Of a stretch of DNA of 34,067 nt, positions 4,986 to 34,067 are shown one piece after another (the stretch's first letter is position 1; every line of letters begins with the position of its first letter). This stretch comes from Cyclobacteriaceae bacterium (GTDB lineage: Bacteria > Bacteroidota > Bacteroidia > Cytophagales > Cyclobacteriaceae): positions 1 to 34,067 of the forward strand of contig DATDPY010000125.1 of NCBI GenBank assembly GCA_035292565.1. The letters are read 5' to 3'. The notes beneath the pieces are model-generated. The model did no database searches, was not told where the DNA came from, and was given only the letters and a program-made list of their open reading frames with translations. The translations under genes were made by a program, and so were the position numbers.

Positions 4986-6026
4986 CTACAAATTCCCCAT
5001 CTCAAAATCAATCAGCCATCTCTTGCGCGAAATCCCTCCGCTGTATCCTGTCATGCTGCCGTCTTCACCGATCACCCGGTGACAGGGAATAATGATCGCA
5101 ATCCGGTTCATTCCGTTTGCCCTGGCCACGGCCCTGACGGCATTTTTGTTCTCCAGCGCCAAAGCCATTCCCTTATAGGTCCGGGTTTCGCCATAGGGGA
5201 TCTTCAGCAAATGTTCCCAGACAAGATTCTGGAATTGTGATCCCGGGGTCAGCAATGGAAGGTTAAAACTTTTACGGGTACCTTCGAAATATTCCCGCAT
5301 TTGTTTTTCGAGTGCTGCAAAATGTTTGTTGTAACCATATAGGATATTCGCTCCCAGCCTCACCTTCAGGTCTTTCAGCTCTGATTCCAGCATTCTCCTG
5401 TCGGTGAATTCTACAAGGCATATTCCTTCTTCAACAGCACAGGCTATCATGGGTCCCAGCGGGGTCGAAAAGCGGTGCATATTGATCACCTTCGCCTGAC
5501 CTGCCCGCGACGGAGACTCCCCGACCAGGTATTTAAAAGCATCGGAAAATCCGCTTAGCGAATCATACCCATTGTCGAAAGCCGCATCCGTTACCCTTGA
5601 GCCTGCAGAAAGCTGCTGCCAGGCCGTATTGATCCTCATCATGCGCTGGTAACCCTGAAAAGTAATACCATGGCGGGATTTAAACCAGCGCCTGACGCGG
5701 TTCGGTTCAATGTTCATATTGACCAGGTCCGAATCCGAGATTTTTACCAGGGGATCTTCTTCAATCTTTGAAATTAAATTCTGTATGTAGGAGGGGATGT
5801 TCCCGGGAGATTCCAGGGGATGGCATAGCCTGCAGGGACGGTAGCCGTTCATCATGGCTTCCCTGGCCGTTGTAAAATATTCTACATTCTCGGGTTTGGG
5901 TTTACGCGCCGTGCATGTTGGCCTGCAGAATATCCCCGTGGTCCTGATGGCAGCATAAAATAACCCCTCATAGGAGCTGTCTTTCCTTATCAGGGCATCG
6001 TACATGATTTCAGGATTAAGGCCCAT
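4986..6026 (-). CDS. ada: Bifunctional Ada: Zn-finger methylphosphotriester acceptor + AraC-type HTH + O6-methylguanine-DNA methyltransferase
   Basis: N-terminal Cys cluster FCRPTCTARKPKPENV...YRPCRLC (Ada Zn-binding domain), AraC HTH (RRWFKSRHGITFQGYQRMMRI), and a C-terminal AGT active site IIIPCHRVIG (PCHR motif). Confidence 0.9.
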   Translation of the reverse strand: MGLNPEIMYDALIRKDSSYEGLFYAAIRTTGIFCRPTCTARKPKPENVEYFTTAREAMMNGYRPCRLCHPLESPGNIPSYIQNLISKIEEDPLVKISDSDLVNMNIEPNRVRRWFKSRHGITFQGYQRMMRINTAWQQLSAGSRVTDAAFDNGYDSLSGFSDAFKYLVGESPSRAGQAKVINMHRFSTPLGPMIACAVEEGICLVEFTDRRMLESELKDLKVRLGANILYGYNKHFAALEKQMREYFEGTRKSFNLPLLTPGSQFQNLVWEHLLKIPYGETRTYKGMALALENKNAVRAVARANGMNRIAIIIPCHRVIGEDGSMTGYSGGISRKRWLIDFEMGNL

Positions 6027-6038
6027 ACTTTTTTATAT

Positions 6039-6046
6039 CAAAAGTA
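6039..6046 (-). promoter_or_regulatory. Candidate Bacteroidota -7 promoter box (TACTTTTG = TAnnTTTG) for ada
   Basis: Exact match to TAnnTTTG on the minus strand, 12 nt upstream of the ada ATG. The motif is short and will also occur by chance in AT-rich spacers. Confidence 0.3.
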
Positions 6047-6100
6047 ATTTTTGTCAAACGTTCTGACAACCGGAAATCTGACAGGGAATTTTTAATTACT

Positions 6101-23309: not shown

Positions 23310-23380
23310 AGAGATGGTTCTTTTATTTTTATTCGGTATTTTCGAGCCAGGTTCATCCCTTGTTTTTTACAATTCACACA

Positions 23381-26218
23381 ATGAAAAAAGTAATTTTATT
23401 TCTCCTGATCATTTTAGCATCATTAGCTGGTTTTTACCCGGCTGATACTGCTTTTATTGCCGCTGAAAATCATTCTCACCCTGCTAATTATGAAATCCAG
23501 ATACCACTGCCCGAACACCCCCGCCCGGATTTCGAAAGACCGGATTGGATCAACCTCAATGGCGAATGGCAGTTCAAATTCGACTCTGCAAATGCCGGAA
23601 TAGACCGGCAATGGTTTGGAGAGAAAAATGAATATCCCGACAGGATCACCGTTCCCTTTTCCTGGGGATCAAACCTGTCGGGCATTGAAGATAAAGCCGA
23701 TATTGGCTGGTATAAAAAAATGATCCGGGTTCCATCCTCCTGGAAGGGCAAGAGGATCTTCCTCGTGATCGGCGCATCCGACTGGCTGAGCAAGGCCTGG
23801 CTCGACGGCAATTACATCGGCGAATTCCAGGGTGGTTATTCGCAATTTGAATTTGAACTGACTGATCATGTAAGTCATGACACACCCCAGGATATCGTCA
23901 TCAGGGTTGATGACAGCCCGCATGCCTTTAAGCTCGAAGGAAAACAGGGGTATGGCAACGTGAGGGGAATCTGGCAAACACCATATCTCGAAGCCCGGGG
24001 AAAAAATTTTATCGAGTATATCCATTTTACCCCCGATATCGACCGCGAACTGGTGACCGTTGAAGGCCGGCTTGCCGCCCGCCCGGAAAGCGGCGCCTCC
24101 CTGCTATTAGCCATTAACGAAAACCGGGCAAATAAAAAATTGGTCGACCAGAAGCTGAATCCGGAAAGCCGGGATTTTTCTTTTTCCGTTCCGATCGATG
24201 ATCCCCGCCTGTGGTCGATCGATGATCCCTACCTCTATTCCGCAACTGCAGAGTTGGTATCAGGGAAAACATCCGTAGATAAGGTCTCCACCTATTTCGG
24301 TATGAGGAAGATTGGAACTATGAAACTTCCCGGAACCGATTACATGTATGTATCGCTGAACAATAAGCCTGTTTACTTGAAAATGACCCTCGACCAGGCG
24401 TACCACCCGGATGGATTTTACACCTGGCCTTCGGATGAATTCATGCGCGATGAGATCATCCGTTCGAAAAAACTGGGCCTGAACTGCAACAGGATCCATG
24501 TGAAGATCGACCTGCCGAGGAAACTTTACTGGGCCGACAGGCTCGGCTTGCTGATCATGGCCGACGTCCCGAATTCCTGGGGGGAACCGGATGCGTTGAT
24601 GAAAAAAGAATCGGAAACGGCTATGGAAAAGATGATCCACCGCGACTACAACCACCCTTCCGTCTTTTCATGGATTTTATTCAACGAAACGTGGGGCCTG
24701 TTTACGAAAACCGACAGCGGCCGGCTGTACCTGCCCCAAACCCAGGAATGGGTGGCTGAAATGTACAGAAAGGCCAAAGCCCTCGATAATACCCGGCTGG
24801 TTGAAGATAATTCAGCCTGCAACTATGACCACGTGATGACGGACATCAATACCTGGCACGCCTATCTTCCGGGATATGGCTGGGAAAAAATGCTGGATGA
24901 ATTCACCGGTAAAACTTTCCCGGGATCGGGATTCAACTTTGCCAAAGGATATTTGCAAACCAACCAGCCCATGCTGAACAGCGAGTGCGGGAATGTGTGG
25001 GGATATGAGGGAAGCACCGGCGATATCGACTGGAGCTGGGATTACCATATCATGATGAACCAGTTCCGCATGCACCCGAAGGTGGCAGGCTGGCTTTATA
25101 CCGAACATCACGATGTGATCAACGAGTGGAACGGGTATTATCGTTTCGACCGCTCTGAAAAGTATCCTGGTTTCGAAGAACTTGCGGAAGGCATGATGCT
25201 TGCCGACCTCCATAGCGATATTTACCTGGTCCCCGGGTCCGACCTTTGCACCGACCAGTTCCCCGGAGCGGAAGTATCCGTACCGCTGTGGATTTCTACC
25301 ATGACCGACAGGGTGCCGGCAGAGAACGCCGTCATTCATGCCAGAATGAAGTGGTGGAACGAATTGGGGGTCCCCTTCACCGATGACCTGGGAACACAGG
25401 TTGCTCCCATAAAATCCTGGGCCCTGACAGATGCAGGTACGTGGAAGATAAAGCTTCCCGACACGGAAGGACTGGCGATACTGTCATTCCGTGTTGAAGA
25501 TCCTTCAGGAAATGCCATCCATCGAAATTTCCTGACCTTTAATATTACCGATAGTAAAGAAAACAGCCTGTTTGACGTTACAGATCCTTCAGGAAAATTT
25601 AAAGTGCTTTCATTTGGACCGGCAGCCCCGGCCAGTCAGGATTGGTCCGTAAAACAATGGATTTCCATGAATGGAAAGAAGCTGAACGGCGCCGGGACCG
25701 GATATTTTGAATATCGTGTAGACATCCCTTCCGATATTGTCTTGAGCGACATTATCGAAGCGACTTTCCGGGCTGAGCTTTCCGCAAAGGAGTTGTTTGG
25801 GAAAGATGTTGGGGATTCGAAAATGGAGGGAGATTATATGCGCGGAAAAGGTACCTTCGACCCCGGCAGAAACCCCAATGCCTATCCTATGACTGACGAA
25901 AAGAAGTTTCCGTCGATCGTCACTATATCGGTCAATGGCAGAGTGATCGGAACACAGTACCTTCCGGATGATCCGGCCGATCACCGGGGAATTCTTTCAT
26001 GGCACAGCCAGCTTAAGGATCGAAAGCTCCGGGATGCCGGCTCCTACGGATACCTGGTCAGCTTGAGCATACCAACTGATGTGCTTGCCGATGCCATACG
26101 CCGCAGGATGTTCACCATCCGACTTGAAGCCAACCAGATTGGCGGAGGACTGGCAGTTTATGGGCGGAACAGCGGCAGGTATCCTCTCGATCCATCCTTC
26201 ATCTTCCGGATGAAGTAG
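23381..26218 (+). CDS. Glycoside hydrolase family 2 (beta-galactosidase/beta-glucuronidase-like), secreted
   Basis: Signal peptide from M at 23381 (MKKVILFLLIILASLAGF). N-terminal sugar-binding-domain pattern (INLNGEWQFKFD...VPFSW), and the GH2 acid/base block RDYNHPSVFSWILFNE. Confidence 0.8.
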   Translation: MKKVILFLLIILASLAGFYPADTAFIAAENHSHPANYEIQIPLPEHPRPDFERPDWINLNGEWQFKFDSANAGIDRQWFGEKNEYPDRITVPFSWGSNLSGIEDKADIGWYKKMIRVPSSWKGKRIFLVIGASDWLSKAWLDGNYIGEFQGGYSQFEFELTDHVSHDTPQDIVIRVDDSPHAFKLEGKQGYGNVRGIWQTPYLEARGKNFIEYIHFTPDIDRELVTVEGRLAARPESGASLLLAINENRANKKLVDQKLNPESRDFSFSVPIDDPRLWSIDDPYLYSATAELVSGKTSVDKVSTYFGMRKIGTMKLPGTDYMYVSLNNKPVYLKMTLDQAYHPDGFYTWPSDEFMRDEIIRSKKLGLNCNRIHVKIDLPRKLYWADRLGLLIMADVPNSWGEPDALMKKESETAMEKMIHRDYNHPSVFSWILFNETWGLFTKTDSGRLYLPQTQEWVAEMYRKAKALDNTRLVEDNSACNYDHVMTDINTWHAYLPGYGWEKMLDEFTGKTFPGSGFNFAKGYLQTNQPMLNSECGNVWGYEGSTGDIDWSWDYHIMMNQFRMHPKVAGWLYTEHHDVINEWNGYYRFDRSEKYPGFEELAEGMMLADLHSDIYLVPGSDLCTDQFPGAEVSVPLWISTMTDRVPAENAVIHARMKWWNELGVPFTDDLGTQVAPIKSWALTDAGTWKIKLPDTEGLAILSFRVEDPSGNAIHRNFLTFNITDSKENSLFDVTDPSGKFKVLSFGPAAPASQDWSVKQWISMNGKKLNGAGTGYFEYRVDIPSDIVLSDIIEATFRAELSAKELFGKDVGDSKMEGDYMRGKGTFDPGRNPNAYPMTDEKKFPSIVTISVNGRVIGTQYLPDDPADHRGILSWHSQLKDRKLRDAGSYGYLVSLSIPTDVLADAIRRRMFTIRLEANQIGGGLAVYGRNSGRYPLDPSFIFRMK

Positions 26219-26221
26219 TTC

Positions 26222-26345
26222 TCGCCACCAAGACACGAAGGCACCAGGATTCACTAAGAAATACAATCTTCATCTTAGTGAATCCCCGCCTGCCATCGCC
26301 AGACCCTGGGAATGGCGGGCAGGTTCGTGCATCAGTGATATACAT
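26222..26345. repeat. Partial third copy of the ATTCGTG-type intergenic repeat, with a 13-bp perfect hairpin
   Basis: GCGGGCAGGTTCGTG (26315-26329) is identical to 6395-6409. The region also has a CACGAAG module at 26234 and the hairpin GGATTCACTAAGA-N13-TCTTAGTGAATCC (26247-26285). Confidence 0.7.
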
Positions 26346-26435
26346 TTTCCGCACCTATAATTGTCCACAAATAATATTTAGTATAACAAATTCCTGATTC
26401 ATTCAACATGGATTACCAAAACCCGGTTTTTCTTC

Positions 26436-26443
26436 TAACTTTG
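26436..26443 (+). promoter_or_regulatory. Candidate -7 promoter box (TAACTTTG = TAnnTTTG) for the DUF1080 gene
   Basis: Exact motif match 21 nt upstream of the ATG at 26465. It lies inside the track's longer ORF (26408), which supports the shorter start that yields a signal peptide. Confidence 0.35.
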
Positions 26444-26464
26444 CCACCAAATTATTTAAACGAT

Positions 26465-27244
26465 ATGAAGAAATTTATCAATTTTTCGCTTGCTGTTACT
26501 GCTGTAATGGCTGTTTTACTTGCCTGGTCATGCAAACCTTCAGCAACCAAGGAGACCGCATCCGATACTCCCTTGGTCAATGCCCTCACACCTGAAGAAG
26601 AAGCTGCCGGCTGGGAATTGTTATTCGACGGAAGCACCCTCGATGGATGGAAAAGATTTAATCATGATACCATAGGTCCGTTATGGAGAGTTGAAGACAG
26701 TTGTATCATCGTTCAGGGCGAAGGTCTTGGCGAAGGCAGCGGCGTATGGGGAGGATCACTGATCACCCTGAAACAATACGGGAACTTCGAGCTGGTATGC
26801 GACTTCAAGGTTTCCCCCGGCGGAAACAGCGGCATATTATACCATGTGGTCGAAGGCGCCCAGTACTCCCACGATTATGTGACCGGCCCCGAGTACCAGG
26901 TAATGGATGATAAAGGATGGACGGGCGACAGCCTTCATGCAGCCCAAACTGTCGGCTCTAATTATGATATGTTCGCCGCACCTGTTACCAAAATAACCAA
27001 GCCTGTCGGCGAATGGAATTTGGCAAAGATCATCTACAACAACGGTCATGTCGAACACTGGCTGAACGGTGAGAAAACGGTTGAGTTCGAGGAAGGAAGT
27101 CCCGCCTATAATGAGGCATTTGAGAAGAGTAAATGGAATGGGACAGAATATCCCGACTGGAATAAATTCAAAACAGGTTCCATCAGCCTGCAGGACCACG
27201 GGGCTCCTATCTGGTTCAGAAATATCAAAGTAAGGGAACTATAA
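26465..27244 (+). CDS. DUF1080 (3-keto-disaccharide hydrolase-like, concanavalin fold) protein, lipoprotein/secreted
   Basis: MKKFINFSLAVTAVMAVLLAWSC signal/lipobox. DUF1080 blocks LFDGSTLDGWK, GNFELVCDFKVSPGGNSGILY, GEWNLAKIIYNNGHVEHWLNG and SISLQDHGAPIWFRNIKVREL. Confidence 0.85.
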   Translation: MKKFINFSLAVTAVMAVLLAWSCKPSATKETASDTPLVNALTPEEEAAGWELLFDGSTLDGWKRFNHDTIGPLWRVEDSCIIVQGEGLGEGSGVWGGSLITLKQYGNFELVCDFKVSPGGNSGILYHVVEGAQYSHDYVTGPEYQVMDDKGWTGDSLHAAQTVGSNYDMFAAPVTKITKPVGEWNLAKIIYNNGHVEHWLNGEKTVEFEEGSPAYNEAFEKSKWNGTEYPDWNKFKTGSISLQDHGAPIWFRNIKVREL

Positions 27245-27266
27245 GGTTTACAGACCTCTTATATTG

Positions 27267-27301
27267 AACTGCCGCGGACAAATTGTTCCGGCAGTTTTTT
27301 T
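27267..27301 (+). terminator. Rho-independent terminator after the DUF1080 gene
   Basis: AACTGCCG (27267-27274) pairs perfectly with CGGCAGTT (27289-27296) and is followed by a 7-T run (27295-27301). It lies 23 nt after the stop codon. Confidence 0.7.
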
Positions 27302-27437
27302 ATAAATATTCGATTTAAACACCCATCAATCTCACGAAGTGGACTCCGATGGAGGTGTAGAAATCTTTTTCCCCTTCAGAGTCTCCCGCCGGGCTGGGTG
27401 CGTACGCGCCGGGGACTCTGATGACCAGAAAGAAATT

Positions 27438-28214
27438 CTATAGAATAACTGATTTCCCCATTCTCCAAGTAAGTACTTCCTGCAAAGGCTTACTTACAAA
27501 GATTGACATATCAGCATTTGGAAAATAATATATTTTAACAATATCTGGATTACTGTTTGAAACTCTAAGCTCTTCAAAATTACCTAACTTCTCTATGAAT
27601 AAATCTTTATCCCAATGAGTTCCTACTACCACATTATTCATTACCCAGGATTGCTTCAAATCTAAACTCTTTTTCTCCTCAGCAGATCCAAATTCAGTTG
27701 AAAGACTTATATCGTATGTATCACTTATAACTGATTTTATGCCTTTTGATATCGCATTTCCATCATTTGCTCCCCATCTTGGGTAAAATGTAACTTCCGC
27801 TTCATAATCTCCACTTGGTAATTCGAATGTATTGATATCAAATTTAAAGGCATAAGGTGTCATATCAACCCGAATTTTTTTGTCGGCACCAATATATATA
27901 TCTTCTGGTTTCTGATTTTTTAAATTAATACTAGCCATCATTTCGACAGGTAATGGAATATTTGTCTCAATTGTATATTCTACAGTATTTGCACTAACAA
28001 CAACAGCTTTTACTTCGATCTTTAGATTTGAAGGTAATGTATTTCGAGCCCTCGGAATTACTGCTACTGAGTCTTTTTTAACTATTGGTCTTTGTTCATC
28101 AATATTTGATGTGTCCAAATCCTTACCCGAGCTTAACGAATTAATCTCTTTGGGAGATTTTGAGGAGCATGAGAACATTACAGCTATTGTGGCTATAAAA
28201 AATAATTTATCCAT
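27438..28214 (-). CDS. Orphan lipoprotein of unknown function (AT-rich island gene 1)
   Basis: I trimmed the start to M at 28214, giving MDKLFFIATIAVMFSCSSK (lipobox). The body is beta-rich, I recognise no motif, and the codon usage is very AT-rich. Confidence 0.65.
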   Translation of the reverse strand: MDKLFFIATIAVMFSCSSKSPKEINSLSSGKDLDTSNIDEQRPIVKKDSVAVIPRARNTLPSNLKIEVKAVVVSANTVEYTIETNIPLPVEMMASINLKNQKPEDIYIGADKKIRVDMTPYAFKFDINTFELPSGDYEAEVTFYPRWGANDGNAISKGIKSVISDTYDISLSTEFGSAEEKKSLDLKQSWVMNNVVVGTHWDKDLFIEKLGNFEELRVSNSNPDIVKIYYFPNADMSIFVSKPLQEVLTWRMGKSVIL

Positions 28215-28506
28215 TATATTATTGTCGAAAATAAAAATAACAAAAAATATGTTAAACTGTAATGGACATTCACTAAAAAATACAAATAATTCTTCAATAA
28301 CCATGAGCCAACTAACTATACTTATCATAACTATCGCATCAGGGTTTCGCGAGGGTGGACTCTCATGGGAGAAAAGTAATAAACCTGATGAAGCAACCTT
28401 GATTTTACATAAAGAATTATCGCTAAAATTACTATATCTTTTTCGACATGTTACTGAATATACATTAAATTTACTAACCCTTTAACCCAACGCTTTTGAC
28501 GATGTA

Positions 28507-29238
28507 ATGAGAAAGCTTACTGTTTTATTAATTATTGCTATTTTGATTTTGATTCCGAGTGTTTTATTTATTATTAATTTTAAAAATCAAATTATTTCTG
28601 ATGATATAACTGATTGGTCAGCATTTGGCACATATTTCGCCGGAACGGTTGGCACACTTATTACAATCCTCGCGATTTTAATTGTATATGTGACATTTTT
28701 AAATCAAAAAGAACAACAATTCGAAAATAGATATAATCAACTTTTAAACTCGTATTCAACTCATCTCAACTTAATACATGAAAAATGGTTAATGTTTCCA
28801 ACGCCTGTTGAATACCTTACAGGTAGGGAAATATTTGGATGTGCAGCTAATTATTTCTATCACGAAAACCCAGTTAAAAATAATTATGAAGAAAGGTTTA
28901 ATAAAATGCATCAAACACATATAAATGTATTTGGAAGTTATATTAATTTTTTATTGGAAGTTATTGATACAATTAAGAAGCGCTCTAACCTGGATAAGAC
29001 CACATCAGATTATTACTTACAGAGATTTAGTTTCACTATGTCGTTTTATGAGTTAGTATATTTTGGGTATTATTCGTTATATCATCTAAAGAGTAAAGAA
29101 AAAGAATTATTTAATACGATTTTAAGAAATTTTCTTTTTAGAATTAATATTGATTATTCAACAGAATTGCAACATCGAGAGGTAGCATTATATTTAAAAG
29201 AAAAATTGTTCTCACCGCAGAAAAAGATTAATACTTAA
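28507..29238 (+). CDS. AbiC-like putative abortive-infection membrane protein (putAbiC architecture; island gene 2)
   Basis: Two N-terminal TM helices separated by DWSAFGTYFAGTVGTL, then Q..EQQFENRYNQLLNSY. This matches the remembered putAbiC pattern (FGD.FGG..., then Q....QFE..FF.LL). The C-terminal domain is soluble and alpha-helical. Confidence 0.55.
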   Translation: MRKLTVLLIIAILILIPSVLFIINFKNQIISDDITDWSAFGTYFAGTVGTLITILAILIVYVTFLNQKEQQFENRYNQLLNSYSTHLNLIHEKWLMFPTPVEYLTGREIFGCAANYFYHENPVKNNYEERFNKMHQTHINVFGSYINFLLEVIDTIKKRSNLDKTTSDYYLQRFSFTMSFYELVYFGYYSLYHLKSKEKELFNTILRNFLFRINIDYSTELQHREVALYLKEKLFSPQKKINT

Positions 29239-29322
29239 TCCTCCTATTAAAAAAAAGTATAATTTATATAACAGAAATTCAGAAAACCTTTTCCTCCTTT
29301 GTGTTATTTAAAATTAACGACG

Positions 29323-29886
29323 ATGGACTTCAAAAAACATTTAATACAAGCCTATTTAGGGATAGACTTTACCGCTCAATTTATTGCAATGAAAAAAAGT
29401 TTACCTAATACAAGCTTAGAAGATTTCTATCAAGCTTGGCAAAGAAAAAACGGGATATCTCCGATTCAAGATAAAAATGAAATCTTTACACCTGGGTTAT
29501 TCTTAGGTTATTTATATGTAGCTGTCGTTTTGTTTCAACAAAGCAATGAAGATAAGATTCCAAATACACCAATTAATAAATTAGATAAAACCCTTTGGGG
29601 TAATATATATATTAATTCCAAAATAAATTCTGGAAAAAATAAGCAATGGAAACAATTTAATTGGAATTCTATTAATGAAACAACCATAAAATATATTATT
29701 AGAAGAATTAGAAATTCTTTATCACATTTTAATTTCATAATAGATGATGACTGGTACTTCACCTTTTATGATGATCCTGATAAGAATAATAAATATGAAA
29801 AATCCGAAATATCTATTAAATTTTCATTTGATGATTTAGCATTTAAATTTTTACCTACCTTGAATAGTTTTTTAATGAACGAGTAA
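29323..29886 (+). CDS. Small HEPN-like protein with an Rx4H motif (putative RNase; island gene 3)
   Basis: IIRRIRNSLSHFNF contains RNSLSH (nt 29710-29727), the canonical HEPN R-N-x3-H catalytic signature. The protein is ~187 aa from the ATG at 29323 (the track start at 29299 is TTG). Its size is typical of stand-alone Abi-type HEPN proteins. Confidence 0.55.
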   Translation: MDFKKHLIQAYLGIDFTAQFIAMKKSLPNTSLEDFYQAWQRKNGISPIQDKNEIFTPGLFLGYLYVAVVLFQQSNEDKIPNTPINKLDKTLWGNIYINSKINSGKNKQWKQFNWNSINETTIKYIIRRIRNSLSHFNFIIDDDWYFTFYDDPDKNNKYEKSEISIKFSFDDLAFKFLPTLNSFLMNE

Positions 29887-30045
29887 TAAACGTCACAAAA
29901 CATGTCGGTATGGCCAATTCCTAAATCTTATTTCTTGATTTCTTCCGAAATTCTTTCTAGTTTCTGTTCCAGAATAATGATTGACCATTTATATCCGGTA
30001 ACGGCTTTATCGACCTACCATTGGCTGTAATAGTTCCATAAGGAG

Positions 30046-30681
30046 ATGAGTTACCTTAATAGAGTATTAAAATGGATATGGGAAGGAAAGTATTTATACA
30101 TACTTATTATCCTTTTATTATTGGTATTATTAGCAGACAATATATGTATCGACGGACTCGGAACGGCTGATAATATTCGAATTTATGGATTACTTCTACA
30201 ATTGACAGGCGCAATGATAATTGTATACTCATTAAAGGAAAAACTAATTTTATTCAAAGGACATGGTCTTGGAACATTTCTACTAAATTATTTTAAAACA
30301 TTCCCTAAAACAGAAAAGAAACGAATTTTAGAAACGAAGGGTAATATAAAAGGATCCTCAATTGTGTCAGGGAATGCAAGAGTTCTGAAGAGACCAATTG
30401 AAGACCTTAAAGACATCATTCGATACTTTGATGAGGAAATTCAATTTCTGCATAAACAACTAATGAAGACAAAGGCAGAATTGAAAAATGACATTACGAC
30501 AGTAAAAACAAACTTAGATGAAGTAAGAAAAAGGTTAGGAAAACAAATAGAAGATACACAACAATTAATTTCGGACTCAACAATATCAAATGTATGGGTT
30601 GACTTATTTGGGATTTCAATTATTTTTATTGGACTAATATATGGAACGATTCCTGATCTTGTAGAGAAGATAATTTGGTGA
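30046..30681 (+). CDS. 3-TM membrane protein with a central coiled coil (island gene 4), function unknown
   Basis: TM helices at about residues 17-31 (YLYILIILLLLVLLA), 44-63 (IRIYGLLLQLTGAMIIVYSL) and 183-203 (VWVDLFGISIIFIGLIYGTI). A heptad-like charged segment lies between them (IEDLKDIIRYFDEEIQFLHKQLMKTKAELKNDITTVKTNLDEVRKRLGKQIEDTQQL). Confidence 0.6.
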   Translation: MSYLNRVLKWIWEGKYLYILIILLLLVLLADNICIDGLGTADNIRIYGLLLQLTGAMIIVYSLKEKLILFKGHGLGTFLLNYFKTFPKTEKKRILETKGNIKGSSIVSGNARVLKRPIEDLKDIIRYFDEEIQFLHKQLMKTKAELKNDITTVKTNLDEVRKRLGKQIEDTQQLISDSTISNVWVDLFGISIIFIGLIYGTIPDLVEKIIW

Positions 30682-30888
30682 AATACTTTTATAGCCAACA
30701 CGCTGACGATTATGGGAAAATGATTATTCGATATTCTTAATAAAAGTATTAAATTGAATAAAAGTTAAATATGATTTGGAGAATAATGTGGTAGTCGTAT
30801 TTCCCCCTATCAGAATCTCTACCATGCCCTCTGTCGATCCAAAAATCTTTCCTATCTTTCCGGATCTTAATTTCATAAACCAAATGCT

Positions 30889-31815
30889 TTGATCATGAAC
30901 TCCCCCCTCCAAAGAAGAAAATTCATCAAATCCCTGGCGGCCCTGCCCGCGGCGGCGGCCCTTTCTTCACTGCCGCGTTCCGCCGGATCCATGCCAGCGG
31001 TTGCAAACGCGAATCCCTCCCGATGCGGACTGAAAATCGGTCTGAATGCTTTTTCATTTAACGACCTGCTCCTCGGCGGCAAAATGACCATCGATGAGGT
31101 ATTGGATTACTGTGCAGAACAATGCATCGATGCCGTCGACCTCACCGGGTATTATTTCCCCGGATATCCGGCTGTTCCACCCGATGAATACATATATCAT
31201 GTCCGCAAAAAAGCCTTCCGGCTCGGCCTCGAGATCAGCGGCACCGGCGTCAGGAATAATTTCACGGAATCCGACGAAGGCAAAAGACGGGCGGATATTA
31301 GCCTGATCAAATACTGGATCGAAGTCGCAGCCAAGCTCGGCGCCCCGGTCATCCGGGTCTTCGCCGGTGAGCCATCTACGGACCAATTTGACTGGGACCA
31401 GGTTGCGAAAAGAATGGCGGGAGAACTGAAGGAGTGCGTCGGATACGGCAAAGCTCACGGGGTGGTGGTGGCCATACAGAATCATAATGATTTCATCCGC
31501 ACAGCGGCACAGGTAAAAAAAATCATGGCCCTGGTGGATTCCGAATGGCTCGGCCTTCACCTCGATATTGGGAGTTACCGCGAAGGCGACCCCTACGAGG
31601 AGATCAGGGCTTCGGTTTCCTATGCCGTTAACTGGCAGATCAAGGAAAACGTATATTTCAACGGAAAAGAAGTGCCGACCGACTTCGACAGACTGACCGG
31701 CATCATCCGGTCTTCATCTTACCGGGGCTACCTCCCCCTCGAAACCCTCGGGCCGGGCAATCCGAAAATTAAACTGGCGGCGATGCTGGAAAAACTGAGA
31801 AATGCATTAAATTAA
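30889..31815 (+). CDS. Sugar phosphate isomerase/epimerase (xylose-isomerase-like TIM barrel) with a Tat signal
   Basis: Twin-arginine leader QRRKFIKSLAALPAAAALS. TIM-barrel blocks (GLNAFSF, IEVAAKLGAPVIRVFAG, VVVAIQNHNDF, LGLHLDIGS, YRGYLPLE). Confidence 0.8.
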   Translation: MIMNSPLQRRKFIKSLAALPAAAALSSLPRSAGSMPAVANANPSRCGLKIGLNAFSFNDLLLGGKMTIDEVLDYCAEQCIDAVDLTGYYFPGYPAVPPDEYIYHVRKKAFRLGLEISGTGVRNNFTESDEGKRRADISLIKYWIEVAAKLGAPVIRVFAGEPSTDQFDWDQVAKRMAGELKECVGYGKAHGVVVAIQNHNDFIRTAAQVKKIMALVDSEWLGLHLDIGSYREGDPYEEIRASVSYAVNWQIKENVYFNGKEVPTDFDRLTGIIRSSSYRGYLPLETLGPGNPKIKLAAMLEKLRNALN

Positions 31816-31833
31816 TCTGCGTAAATTTTTTTA

Positions 31834-33552
31834 ATGATGAAAGCAGCGCTGCATCGATGTTTCTTTTATCCGGTTCTCTTTTTATTCATACCCTTATTTC
31901 CATCCTGCACCGATCAACCGAACGTTGAAAATCCGCGGCCCAACATTCTCTGGATCGTTGTTGAAGACATATCTCCCTATATCGGAGCCTATGGAAATCC
32001 GGAAGTGAAAACTCCCAATATCGACCGCCTCGCATCCGAAGGCGTGAGGTATACAAATGTACACACCACCGCCGGCGTATGCGCCCCCAGCCGATCCGCC
32101 ATCATTACGGGAATGTATCCCATGTCGATCGGCACCCAGCACATGCGTACGCTCGGGGATTCCAAATACTCGGGAGTTCCGCGGTATTCTGCAGTGATTC
32201 CGGAAGATGTAAAATGCTTTCCCGAATACTTGCGCCTGGAGGGATATTATTGCACCAACAATGAAAAGCAGGACTACCAGTTCGAAGCCCCGGTAACCGT
32301 CTGGGATGTGAACGGCCCTACAGCTTCGTGGAGGAACCGGCTGGATGGAAAGCCTTTCTTTTCGATATTCAATTTTTCAGTCACGCATGAATCCCAGTTG
32401 TTCAGCAGGCTCGATGACAGCCTCACCGTTGATCCGGCAAAGGTTACCGTTCCCCCGATTTTACCGGACACTAAAACAACCAGGATTGACATCGCCAGGC
32501 TTTATACCAACATCGAAATCATGGACAGCCAGGTCGGGGAAATCATCGACAAGCTGAAAGAGGACGGGCTGTATGACAACACCATCATCATCTTCTACAG
32601 CGATAACGGAGGCGCCATTCCCTGGACGAAGAGGGAAATCACGGAACGTGGAACCCATATCCCGTTCATTGTCCGTTTTCCGAATGCAACGAACGCCGGG
32701 ACCACCAACGATGAACTGGTCAGCGCGGTTGATTTCGCACCGACGATGCTTTCCCTGGCCGGGATAAAAATTCCGGAATACATGCAGGGCCAGGCCTTCC
32801 TCGGGGAACAAAAATCCGCCACGCCCCGGAAATATGTTTTTGCCGCCCGCGACAGGATGGATACTGAAACAGACAGGGTAAGGTCGGTGACCGACGGAAG
32901 ATACAGGTATGTCTATAATTATATGCCGGAGAAGCCTTTTTACCAGGATATTCAATACAGGATCAGCATACCCGGCATGCAGGAAATCCTTTCGATGAAG
33001 GAAGAAGGAACCTTAAACCCGGTGACGATGACCTGGTTCAACACCAAGCCCGTCGAAGAACTTTATGACGAAGTGAACGATCCGTGGGACCTGAAAAACC
33101 TCGCCGGCGATTCCGCTTACCGGGAAAAACTGAATGAACTCAGGACCGCATTCCAGGAATGGACCAGCACTGTGGGCGACCTGTCTGAAAAATCCGAACA
33201 GGAAATGATTCGCAGGATGTGGAACGGAAAAGACCGGGCTCCCGCAACTGAGCTTCCGGAAATTCAGCGGATGAACAACGGCGTGAAGATCACCTGCCGG
33301 ACCACCGGAGCTTCCATAGGGTACCGGATAATCAATGTCGCACAACCCGATGCTGTCAGGATGGAGCCGGAGATGTCGTGGGACTTCGGCGTAATGAACA
33401 GGCCGGAACTTAAAGGCAGGGATTTGCCCGTGAAACCATCCTGGAATTTATACCGGGAAGGTGAAACGATCAGCCTTCACCGGGGCGATACGTTAAAAAT
33501 AAATGCTATGCGCATCGGCTATCTGCCGGCTGTGATGGATTTTGTTTTTTAG
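31834..33552 (+). CDS. Formylglycine-dependent sulfatase (arylsulfatase family), lipoprotein/secreted
   Basis: CAPSRSAIITG (CxPSR formylglycine motif), NILWIVVEDISP metal-site block, lipobox FPSC, and IIIFYSDNGG. Confidence 0.9.
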   Translation: MMKAALHRCFFYPVLFLFIPLFPSCTDQPNVENPRPNILWIVVEDISPYIGAYGNPEVKTPNIDRLASEGVRYTNVHTTAGVCAPSRSAIITGMYPMSIGTQHMRTLGDSKYSGVPRYSAVIPEDVKCFPEYLRLEGYYCTNNEKQDYQFEAPVTVWDVNGPTASWRNRLDGKPFFSIFNFSVTHESQLFSRLDDSLTVDPAKVTVPPILPDTKTTRIDIARLYTNIEIMDSQVGEIIDKLKEDGLYDNTIIIFYSDNGGAIPWTKREITERGTHIPFIVRFPNATNAGTTNDELVSAVDFAPTMLSLAGIKIPEYMQGQAFLGEQKSATPRKYVFAARDRMDTETDRVRSVTDGRYRYVYNYMPEKPFYQDIQYRISIPGMQEILSMKEEGTLNPVTMTWFNTKPVEELYDEVNDPWDLKNLAGDSAYREKLNELRTAFQEWTSTVGDLSEKSEQEMIRRMWNGKDRAPATELPEIQRMNNGVKITCRTTGASIGYRIINVAQPDAVRMEPEMSWDFGVMNRPELKGRDLPVKPSWNLYREGETISLHRGDTLKINAMRIGYLPAVMDFVF

Positions 33553-33609
33553 TTTCAGTTCCAGGACTTAATACGTATAATTTTTTTATCTTTATCGTAA
33601 AGAATCATT

Positions 33610-33876
33610 ATGGATTCCAAAATAACGTTGTCCTTCAATTCAGATATTATCAAGAAAGCGAAAAAGTTTGCTGAAATAAAAAATATCAGCCTTTCCCGTC
33701 TCACGGAGTTTTTATACAGGCAGATCGTTTCCGGAAATTATCATAGCCTCGAGGATTTCCCAATAGGTGATTGGATAAATAAATTATCGGATGGGGAAGC
33801 CGTATACCGGGTAAAGCCACGAACCAGAAAATCAATGAAAAAGGAATATCTCCGTGGAAAACACCATCTCCGGTAA
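33610..33876 (+). CDS. DUF6364-like small antitoxin candidate
   Basis: MDSKITLSFNSDIIKKAKKFAEIKNISLSRLTEFLYRQI resembles the RHH-like N-terminus of Bacteroidota DUF6364 proteins (family name from memory). It ends 8 nt before a PIN ORF. Confidence 0.55.
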   Translation: MDSKITLSFNSDIIKKAKKFAEIKNISLSRLTEFLYRQIVSGNYHSLEDFPIGDWINKLSDGEAVYRVKPRTRKSMKKEYLRGKHHLR

Positions 33877-33884
33877 AACTCAGG

Positions 33885-34067
33885 ATGAAAGTCTTTCTTG
33901 ATGCGAATATTCTCGTCTCCGTACTCAACAAGGAATATCCCGTTTTCAGTTATTCTGCGCGCCTACTGCAATTGGCTTTGACAAAAAAATTTCAATTGTA
34001 TACATCGCCCATCTGTCTTGCCATTGCCTTTTATTTCGCCGAAAAGAAAAGTGGCCGCAAGAAGGCT
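33885..34067 (+). CDS. PIN-domain (VapC-like) toxin, N-terminal 61 codons; runs off the right edge
   Basis: This ORF is not in the track because it has no stop. ATG at 33885 gives MKVFLDANILVSVLNKEYPV..., with the classic PIN start (hydrophobic-x-DAN/S-hydrophobic, first catalytic Asp). Confidence 0.6.
   Translation, partial: MKVFLDANILVSVLNKEYPVFSYSARLLQLALTKKFQLYTSPICLAIAFYFAEKKSGRKKA

Follow-up and report, generated by a model that had tools for sequence, protein, structure and literature searches.

The abortive-infection (Abi) proteins AbiC, with two transmembrane (TM) helices, and AbiP, with one, are treated in a 2026 review as a single-gene, membrane-anchored 'AbiC/P' group (PMC13064643). 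AbiC lowers production of the phage major capsid protein, AbiP binds RNA and perturbs the turnover of early transcripts, and a fold-based function has been assigned to neither of them (PMC13064643). A HEPN-domain protein can also be an anti-phage effector: Tha, a defence protein of S. aureus prophages that carries the motif RNSIMH, is activated by a phage structural protein (PMC11087260). Members of another HEPN family, pEK499_p136, have been reported in operons with restriction-modification (R-M) genes, ADP-ribosyltransferases (ARTs), Macro, NamA-like nucleases and Pgl components (Anantharaman et al. 2013, PMC3710099). Finally, HEPN-TM is cited in two papers as an anti-phage system of phage-inducible chromosomal islands (PMC11087260; PMC12948488). 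Here we analyse an AT-rich island of four genes (3.4 kb), located in a sugar-degradation locus of contig DATDPY010000125.1 of a Cyclobacteriaceae bacterium (assembly GCA_035292565.1), of which the whole stretch examined, positions 1 to 34,067 (34,067 nt), is called the window below. The island (27421–30870) holds a predicted lipoprotein gene on the minus strand (27438–28214) and three plus-strand open reading frames (ORFs), ORF2 (28507–29238), ORF3 (29323–29886) and ORF4 (30046–30681), all four found at the coordinates given by an original prediction, made from the DNA letters before any database search, which took them for a candidate undescribed anti-phage system. We lean instead towards reading the island as an accessory islet of foreign composition, a collection of independent single-gene units, among them a putative divergent relative of AbiC and AbiP and a stand-alone HEPN protein, and not as one multi-gene machine.

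ORF2 encodes a protein of 243 aa which, judged from transitive and profile-profile evidence, belongs as a divergent member to the AbiC/AbiP family (putAbiC, PF16872). Its close homologues fall into only two clusters, at 58–60% identity. A profile built from ORF2 and these two homologues, run against 1.84 billion representatives, collected 808 proteins at E ≤ 1e-3, and of the 81 relatives that were scanned, 30 matched PF16872 (best E 3.9e-23), 18 the AbiP model of PADLOC (best E 1.9e-19) and 13 its AbiC model (best E 3.3e-9). The nearest full-length relatives (P0020, P0021 and P0022), which match the ORF2 profile at E 1e-55 to 1e-40, score 30.3, 31.9 and 28.8 bits, respectively, for PF16872 (cut-off 22); the domain occupies the cytoplasmic, C-terminal half of these proteins. 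The PADLOC matches come from relatives that are more distant. An hhalign comparison of the ORF2 subfamily with canonical putAbiC proteins, a set itself drawn from the hits of the ORF2 profile, gave 99.8% probability and E 5e-29 over 184 columns that span the 2-TM module and the C-terminal domain. The original prediction had recognised an AbiC-type N-terminus in ORF2; the call was right, and by this evidence, indirect but strong, it extends to the whole protein.

The predicted architecture agrees with that of the group. Two strong N-terminal TM segments are seen in the hydropathy profile of ORF2 (residues 1–31 and 39–68), and the AlphaFold2 (AF2) model is confident and all-helical (pLDDT 75.7), with helices at 2–30 and 37–94 followed by eight more. 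ORF2 thus has the N-terminal TM anchor and helical soluble domain of AbiC and AbiP, with two TM helices as in AbiC, and it resembles the group too in being a single gene, one of its homologues standing alone in another genome. Foldseek matched the model to no structure in either PDB (best E 0.8) or BFVD (best E 1.0). ORF2 differs from the described members in that it is itself too divergent for the PF16872 and PADLOC models, comes from Cytophagales and not from Firmicutes, and is known from sequence alone; it is also shorter than AbiC (344 aa). Longer relatives of ORF2 exist (409–445 aa), and one of them, P0032 (429 aa), has an additional C-terminal AAA_17/AAA_33 kinase-like domain, which suggests that the 2-TM and putAbiC module can be joined to varied effector or sensor domains. 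In ORF2, the two TM helices would anchor the helical cytoplasmic domain and the protein would act alone at the membrane where, by analogy with lactococcal AbiC and AbiP, it might block late phage gene expression or the turnover of early transcripts.

ORF3 (187 aa, ATG at 29323) encodes a stand-alone HEPN protein of the pEK499_p136 family. It matches PF18736 with E 3.5e-11 and 43.5 bits (cut-off 26.6) over profile positions 25–142 of 152, in agreement with the precomputed Pfam annotation of the database entry. The catalytic motif R130-N-S-L-S-H135 (Rx4H; residues 130–135 of 187, 29710–29727, plus strand) can be read directly from the sequence, and its RNSLSHF string aligns with RNSVAHF of the E. 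coli pEK499 archetype, an instance of the Rx4-6H catalytic motif. The HEPN assignment, first made on the RNSLSH motif, is upheld by a score above the Pfam cut-off. By this score ORF3 belongs to a family whose members are reported in defence-type neighbourhoods, and it shares with the archetype, a 'HEPN family nuclease' that matches PF18736 at E 1e-49, the RNSxxHF motif. In contrast to these likenesses, BLAST between the two proteins detects the motif region only, and close relatives of ORF3 were found neither among 5.8 billion clustered proteins nor in IMG/VR or PLSDB plasmids.

The archetype gene itself (NC_013122.1, 111726–113012, taken together with its neighbour; L147, 31727–33013) is followed, after a gap of 12 nt, by a gene for a 257-aa soluble protein outside any Pfam family, and the two, which look like an uncharacterised two-gene module, sit between a vapBC pair and an IS66 element. 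No homologue of the 257-aa partner was found in the window, beside ORF3 or elsewhere. ORF3 and Tha are both HEPN-domain proteins with an Rx4H motif of the RNSxxH type, whereas Tha has 301 aa, an extra N-terminal region and a HEPN domain of a different family. Given its intact Rx4H motif, ORF3 is predicted to be an RNase, which would stay latent and cleave RNA once infection triggers it, as in single-gene HEPN defences such as Tha.

The third plus-strand gene, ORF4, encodes a 211-aa membrane coiled-coil protein of a small unnamed Bacteroidota family, in which we found 14 homologues at 44–73% identity, one of them from Aquiflexum sp. Its hydropathy profile has strong segments at residues 10–41 and 179–210 and a weaker one at about 47–62, and the helix at 121–180 shows a heptad pattern. 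The AF2 model is poor (pLDDT 59.1); it contains TM helices, a disordered linker (85–117), the long helix (121–180) and a C-terminal TM helix. Hydropathy, heptad pattern and model thus agree with the membrane and coiled-coil character first proposed for this protein. Matches in Pfam, PADLOC and NCBIfam are of coiled-coil type and all below threshold; one of them, to PADLOC LeoC (E 0.003), maps to the coiled coil and was set aside as an effect of composition.

Alignment of upstream regions revealed a conserved 11-mer, TTGGCTGTAAT, 14 nt ahead of the ORF4 start codon (30021–30031, plus strand). In four unrelated loci of the family this element, TTRGCKGTAAT, ends 12–17 nt before the start codon. 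A wider form, TTRGCKRTMAT, has 17 matches in 1.83 Mb, four of them upstream of ORF4-family and two upstream of ORF2-family genes (window 30021–30031; L008 2135–2145; L148 1160–1170; L150 1379–1389; L001 2941–2951; L002 191–201). A similar 11-mer is thus present upstream of both ORF2 homologues, a sharing between families that is possibly due to chance (rough p 0.02–0.05, for a motif defined post hoc). The wider 11-mer corresponds to no TAnnTTTG box and to no attC site; ahead of ORF4, it is likely to be a regulatory element that moves with the gene. ORF4-family genes keep a distance of 200 nt or more from the gene upstream in the six contexts in which this can be read; L013 has only 25 nt, and the L012 contig begins 32 nt ahead of the homologue. 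Everywhere, these genes lie 5–13 G+C points under their host loci. Because of this upstream element of its own, the upstream gaps and the low G+C, the behaviour of the ORF4 family fits that of an autonomous, mobile single gene, and ORF4 would here be a separately mobile membrane coiled-coil gene with its conserved element.

Since the genes travel separately in other genomes, the island is better read as a stack of single genes. In L001, the gene before the ORF2 homologue encodes a TPR protein and the one after it is an unrelated, lipoprotein-like ORF; neither a HEPN gene nor an ORF4 relative is present. The ORF4 homologues are accompanied by a BNR-repeat protein upstream and UDG downstream (L008), by arginine-biosynthesis genes upstream and HTH_17 and a DUF433/DUF5615 pair downstream (L010), by an unrelated 187-aa protein and a PD-(D/E)XK REase-ARP nuclease (L011), by a 197-aa unknown protein (L012), by an ABC transporter (L013), by small unknown genes (L148) and by GyrI-like and SnoaL genes (L150). 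A HEPN gene occurs in none of these (0 of 1 informative ORF2-homologue context and 0 of 7 ORF4-homologue contexts), and tblastn of the four island proteins against every fetched locus recovered their co-occurrence only in contigs of the same organism that are 100% identical. The proposal of one undescribed multi-gene anti-phage system fails because ORF2, ORF3 and ORF4 co-occur nowhere else in the loci examined, an outcome which the original prediction had itself named as telling against it; its fallback of three stacked single-gene units fits better, as the homologues occur without the partner genes. PADLOC 2.0 gave no significant match for any of the four proteins and recognised no multi-gene system. 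The intergenic gaps, 84 nt between ORF2 and ORF3 and 159 nt between ORF3 and ORF4, are long for a tight operon when set beside the 12 nt between the pEK499 HEPN gene and its partner, and the units would be transcribed independently.

Among the contexts just described, L011 has the only defence-like neighbour seen for the ORF4 family, the REase-ARP nuclease gene directly downstream of the homologue (5135–6049; PF20796, E 5e-72; PF22558, E 8e-39). The gene upstream of this homologue was considered as a counterpart of the HEPN gene, its 187-aa product being equal in length to ORF3, but the two proteins are unrelated.

Several observations weigh against a stack of single genes. The co-occurrence test drew on one informative context for ORF2 (L001) and seven for ORF4, the HEPN side having no relatives to contribute. 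ORF2 itself has no direct match above noise in Pfam, PADLOC, NCBIfam or PHROGs, and none to PF16872 or to PADLOC at E ≤ 1. An anti-phage role for ORF2 and ORF3 would follow from their membership of families already linked with abortive infection. HEPN toxins as a rule depend on a partner for neutralisation or sensing, and the archetype has one tightly linked, so a truly solitary HEPN gene is somewhat unexpected. The three plus-strand genes share one orientation, neither gap between them yielded a terminator-like site (the stretch has a single such site, at 29490–29508, within the coding sequence of the HEPN protein), and no Bacteroidota TAnnTTTG promoter was found upstream of any of them, ORF3 and ORF4 included. 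Sigma-70-like promoter sites are no more frequent than in shuffles. ORF2, ORF3 and ORF4 could still be co-transcribed in this organism, because the promoter and terminator scans are uninformative.

Some of these points are shared by the alternative that ORF2 and ORF3, with or without ORF4, form a lineage-specific two- or three-gene abortive-infection module of HEPN-TM type, recently assembled from parts that also exist alone, in which the membrane protein senses infection or restrains the RNase and the HEPN RNase is the effector. Common orientation, common composition, close spacing and gaps free of terminator-like sites would all be expected of it, and it would give the HEPN protein the partner that such toxins normally have, 12 nt away in the archetype. 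The 2-TM module of the ORF2 family, in joining varied C-terminal domains (AAA_17 in P0032), suggests modular use as well. Nevertheless, we regard such a module as unlikely: no HEPN gene adjoins any homologue of ORF2 or ORF4 in the contexts examined, nothing in the 84- and 159-nt gaps points to translational coupling, a conserved element of its own precedes ORF4, AbiC and AbiP are single-gene systems, the pEK499 partner has no homologue in the window and PADLOC sees no multi-gene system.

The design itself, in which a small HEPN RNase has a membrane protein as its neighbour and which the original prediction regarded as the general logic of abortive-infection modules, is not undescribed either: HEPN-TM is recognised as a defence design and already cited as an anti-phage system (PMC11087260; PMC12948488). 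The likeness to HEPN-TM is one of general design, a small HEPN nuclease gene lying beside a TM-protein gene, and in the island membrane-protein genes indeed flank ORF3 on both sides, at 84 nt and 159 nt. The difference is that the pairing seen here is conserved in no other genome examined, so that nothing indicates that these neighbours work together, and a functional pairing of ORF2 and ORF3 as a new variant of the HEPN-TM theme appears rather improbable. HEPN-TM is listed in DefenseFinder as FS_HEPN_TM. A bolder version, in which ORF2 and ORF3 are a newly assembled two-gene abortive-infection module with an AbiC-type sensor controlling the HEPN RNase and, separately, the ORF4 family represents an undescribed kind of mobile cassette in Bacteroidota, a single membrane-protein gene for defence or stress, is in our opinion a long shot. 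If the module were true, the long enigmatic AbiC/P family would gain a defined effector partner, and interdependence of ORF2 and ORF3 would hint at AbiC-type signalling; the ORF4 family, sporadic, AT-rich everywhere and with its own motif, would matter more if it were a new mobile membrane effector. If the stack of single genes is true, it adds little beyond a very divergent AbiC/AbiP member from Cytophagales and an outlying HEPN member of a known family, in a phylum, Bacteroidota, in which few defence genes have been tested. The locus would then be an example against reading adjacency in a single genome as a system.

A further alternative is that the island has no part in defence, being made of horizontally acquired or fast-evolving AT-rich envelope and orphan genes (those of the lipoprotein and the two membrane proteins), with the HEPN gene as the remnant of a toxin, either decaying or of addiction type. 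Functional annotation is lacking for the three envelope proteins among the four products, the neighbourhoods of ORF4 homologues are mostly housekeeping and not defence islands, PADLOC has no significant match for any of the four proteins, and no known defence system adjoins, a DUF6364–PIN pair and a Y1 transposase being located elsewhere in the window. Location is indeed all that connects ORF4 and the lipoprotein with defence, a role that has no support for either of them. The other two genes make this alternative improbable for the island as a whole, as AbiC and AbiP, both validated by experiment, are members of the ORF2 family, ORF3 is full length with an intact HEPN motif, and R-M, Pgl and other defence contexts are reported for the pEK499_p136 family (PMC3710099).

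An integron-like cassette array, that is, a cluster of attC sites lacking an integrase, would suit genes that are small, co-oriented and AT-rich, with homologues scattered as singletons and a short conserved motif upstream of the ORF4 and ORF2 families, but it is hardly credible and was rejected, as no intergenic region has an R''/R' (RYYYAAC...GTTRRRY) pair, intergenic folding resembles that of shuffles on either strand (z −1.3 to +0.5), a Pfam scan of nine ORFs from 23360 to 33876, which did not extend to those upstream of 22716, found no integrase, and there are no flanking repeats. We also rejected a type III toxin-antitoxin system (ToxIN/AbiQ type) or other RNA partner: the only tandem repeat consists of 2.5 copies of a 6-mer inside ORF2, and in an Rfam scan no match reached the gathering score.

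The compositional distinctness of the island is clear. Its G+C content is 0.297, against 0.46 in the rest of the window and 0.444 in the window as a whole, and it lies more than 4 standard deviations (sd) under the background of 1-kb windows outside it (mean 0.459, sd 0.034, minimum 0.377). G+C at third codon positions (GC3) is 0.24 in the lipoprotein gene, 0.23 in ORF2, 0.22 in ORF3 and 0.24 in ORF4, compared with 0.58, 0.52, 0.63 and 0.62 in the flanking GH2, DUF1080, TIM-barrel and sulfatase genes. The abrupt drop that had first drawn attention to this region was thus borne out (0.297 against 0.46; GC3 0.22–0.24 against 0.52–0.63), and the annotations given to the flanks hold in a Pfam scan, which identified GH2 domains and a 3-keto-disaccharide hydrolase (DUF1080, E 9e-48) on one side and a TAT-signal xylose-isomerase-like TIM barrel (E 1.2e-22) and a sulfatase (E 9e-40) on the other. 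The intrinsic terminator proposed for the DUF1080 gene is present as well (27266–27302, plus strand): a hairpin at 27266–27297 followed by U7, of −18.4 kcal/mol and z −5.94, with 0 of 200 shuffles equally stable. This terminator forms the left boundary of the native operon, ahead of the drop in G+C.

Foreign origin is inferred from this composition alone, because exact-protein look-ups (ORF2, DUF1080 and TIM) gave only contigs from other assemblies, 100% identical in DNA and with the island at the same position, and no empty site. A scan of genome contigs with the DUF1080 protein gave 80 loci, all from Cytophagales or other Bacteroidota and at no more than 71% identity, none of which is an empty site. 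The closest relatives come from Cyclobacteriaceae, Chryseolinea- and Ohtaekwangia-like metagenome-assembled genomes (MAGs), with best identities of 60–71%, which places the organism in Cytophagales. In five loci GH2–DUF1080 synteny is kept, at 50–56% identity; unrelated genes come next, so that at this distance there is no empty site to be recognised. With the TIM protein, a metagenome scan gave identities of up to 61% and no synteny. Pfam found neither integrase nor transposase within the island, just as the original prediction had said, and a search for transfer RNA (tRNA) genes found none there; flanking direct or inverted repeats gave nothing meaningful, and a short GTGGACTC-type repeat is no more frequent than expected by chance. 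Viruses and plasmids do not offer a source either: ORF2, the HEPN protein and ORF4 have no relatives in IMG/VR and only sub-threshold matches in PHROGs, and tblastn against PLSDB gave nothing for the HEPN protein and only short matches in the TM region for ORF2. It is the lack of an empty site, integrase, flanking repeat, attC site and RNA element that leaves composition as the sole ground for an insertion.

The lipoprotein gene diverges from the plus-strand genes. Its product (258 aa) has the signal peptide MDKLFFIATIAVMFSC with the lipobox cysteine at position 16, and its start is most likely the internal Met codon at 28214. The protein has no match in Pfam, PADLOC, NCBIfam, PHROGs or PDB sequences, and among the fetched loci tblastn detected it in the identical contigs and nowhere else; it would be an orphan. 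A G+C-rich imperfect inverted repeat (27364–27433), with 26-nt arms that are 73% complementary, separates the 3' end of this gene from the DUF1080 terminator. This may be the terminator of the lipoprotein gene, with folding not clearly above that of shuffles.

Two other features of the window lie at a distance from the island. A 184-aa ORF with a Y1_Tnp domain (PF01797; 22716–23270, plus strand), of the IS200/IS605 or REP-associated tyrosine transposase type, is located some 4 kb from the island, in a patch of lower G+C (0.36–0.43) that immediately precedes the GH2 gene. At the other end, a gene for a DUF6364 protein (PF19891, E 3.5e-16; 33610–33876, plus strand) is overlapped by an ORF (33873–34067, plus strand) which begins MKVFLDANILVSVL, resembles the N-terminus of PIN/VapC proteins and runs past the end of the window. 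The two, which have a G+C content of 0.35–0.41, are probably a toxin-antitoxin pair.

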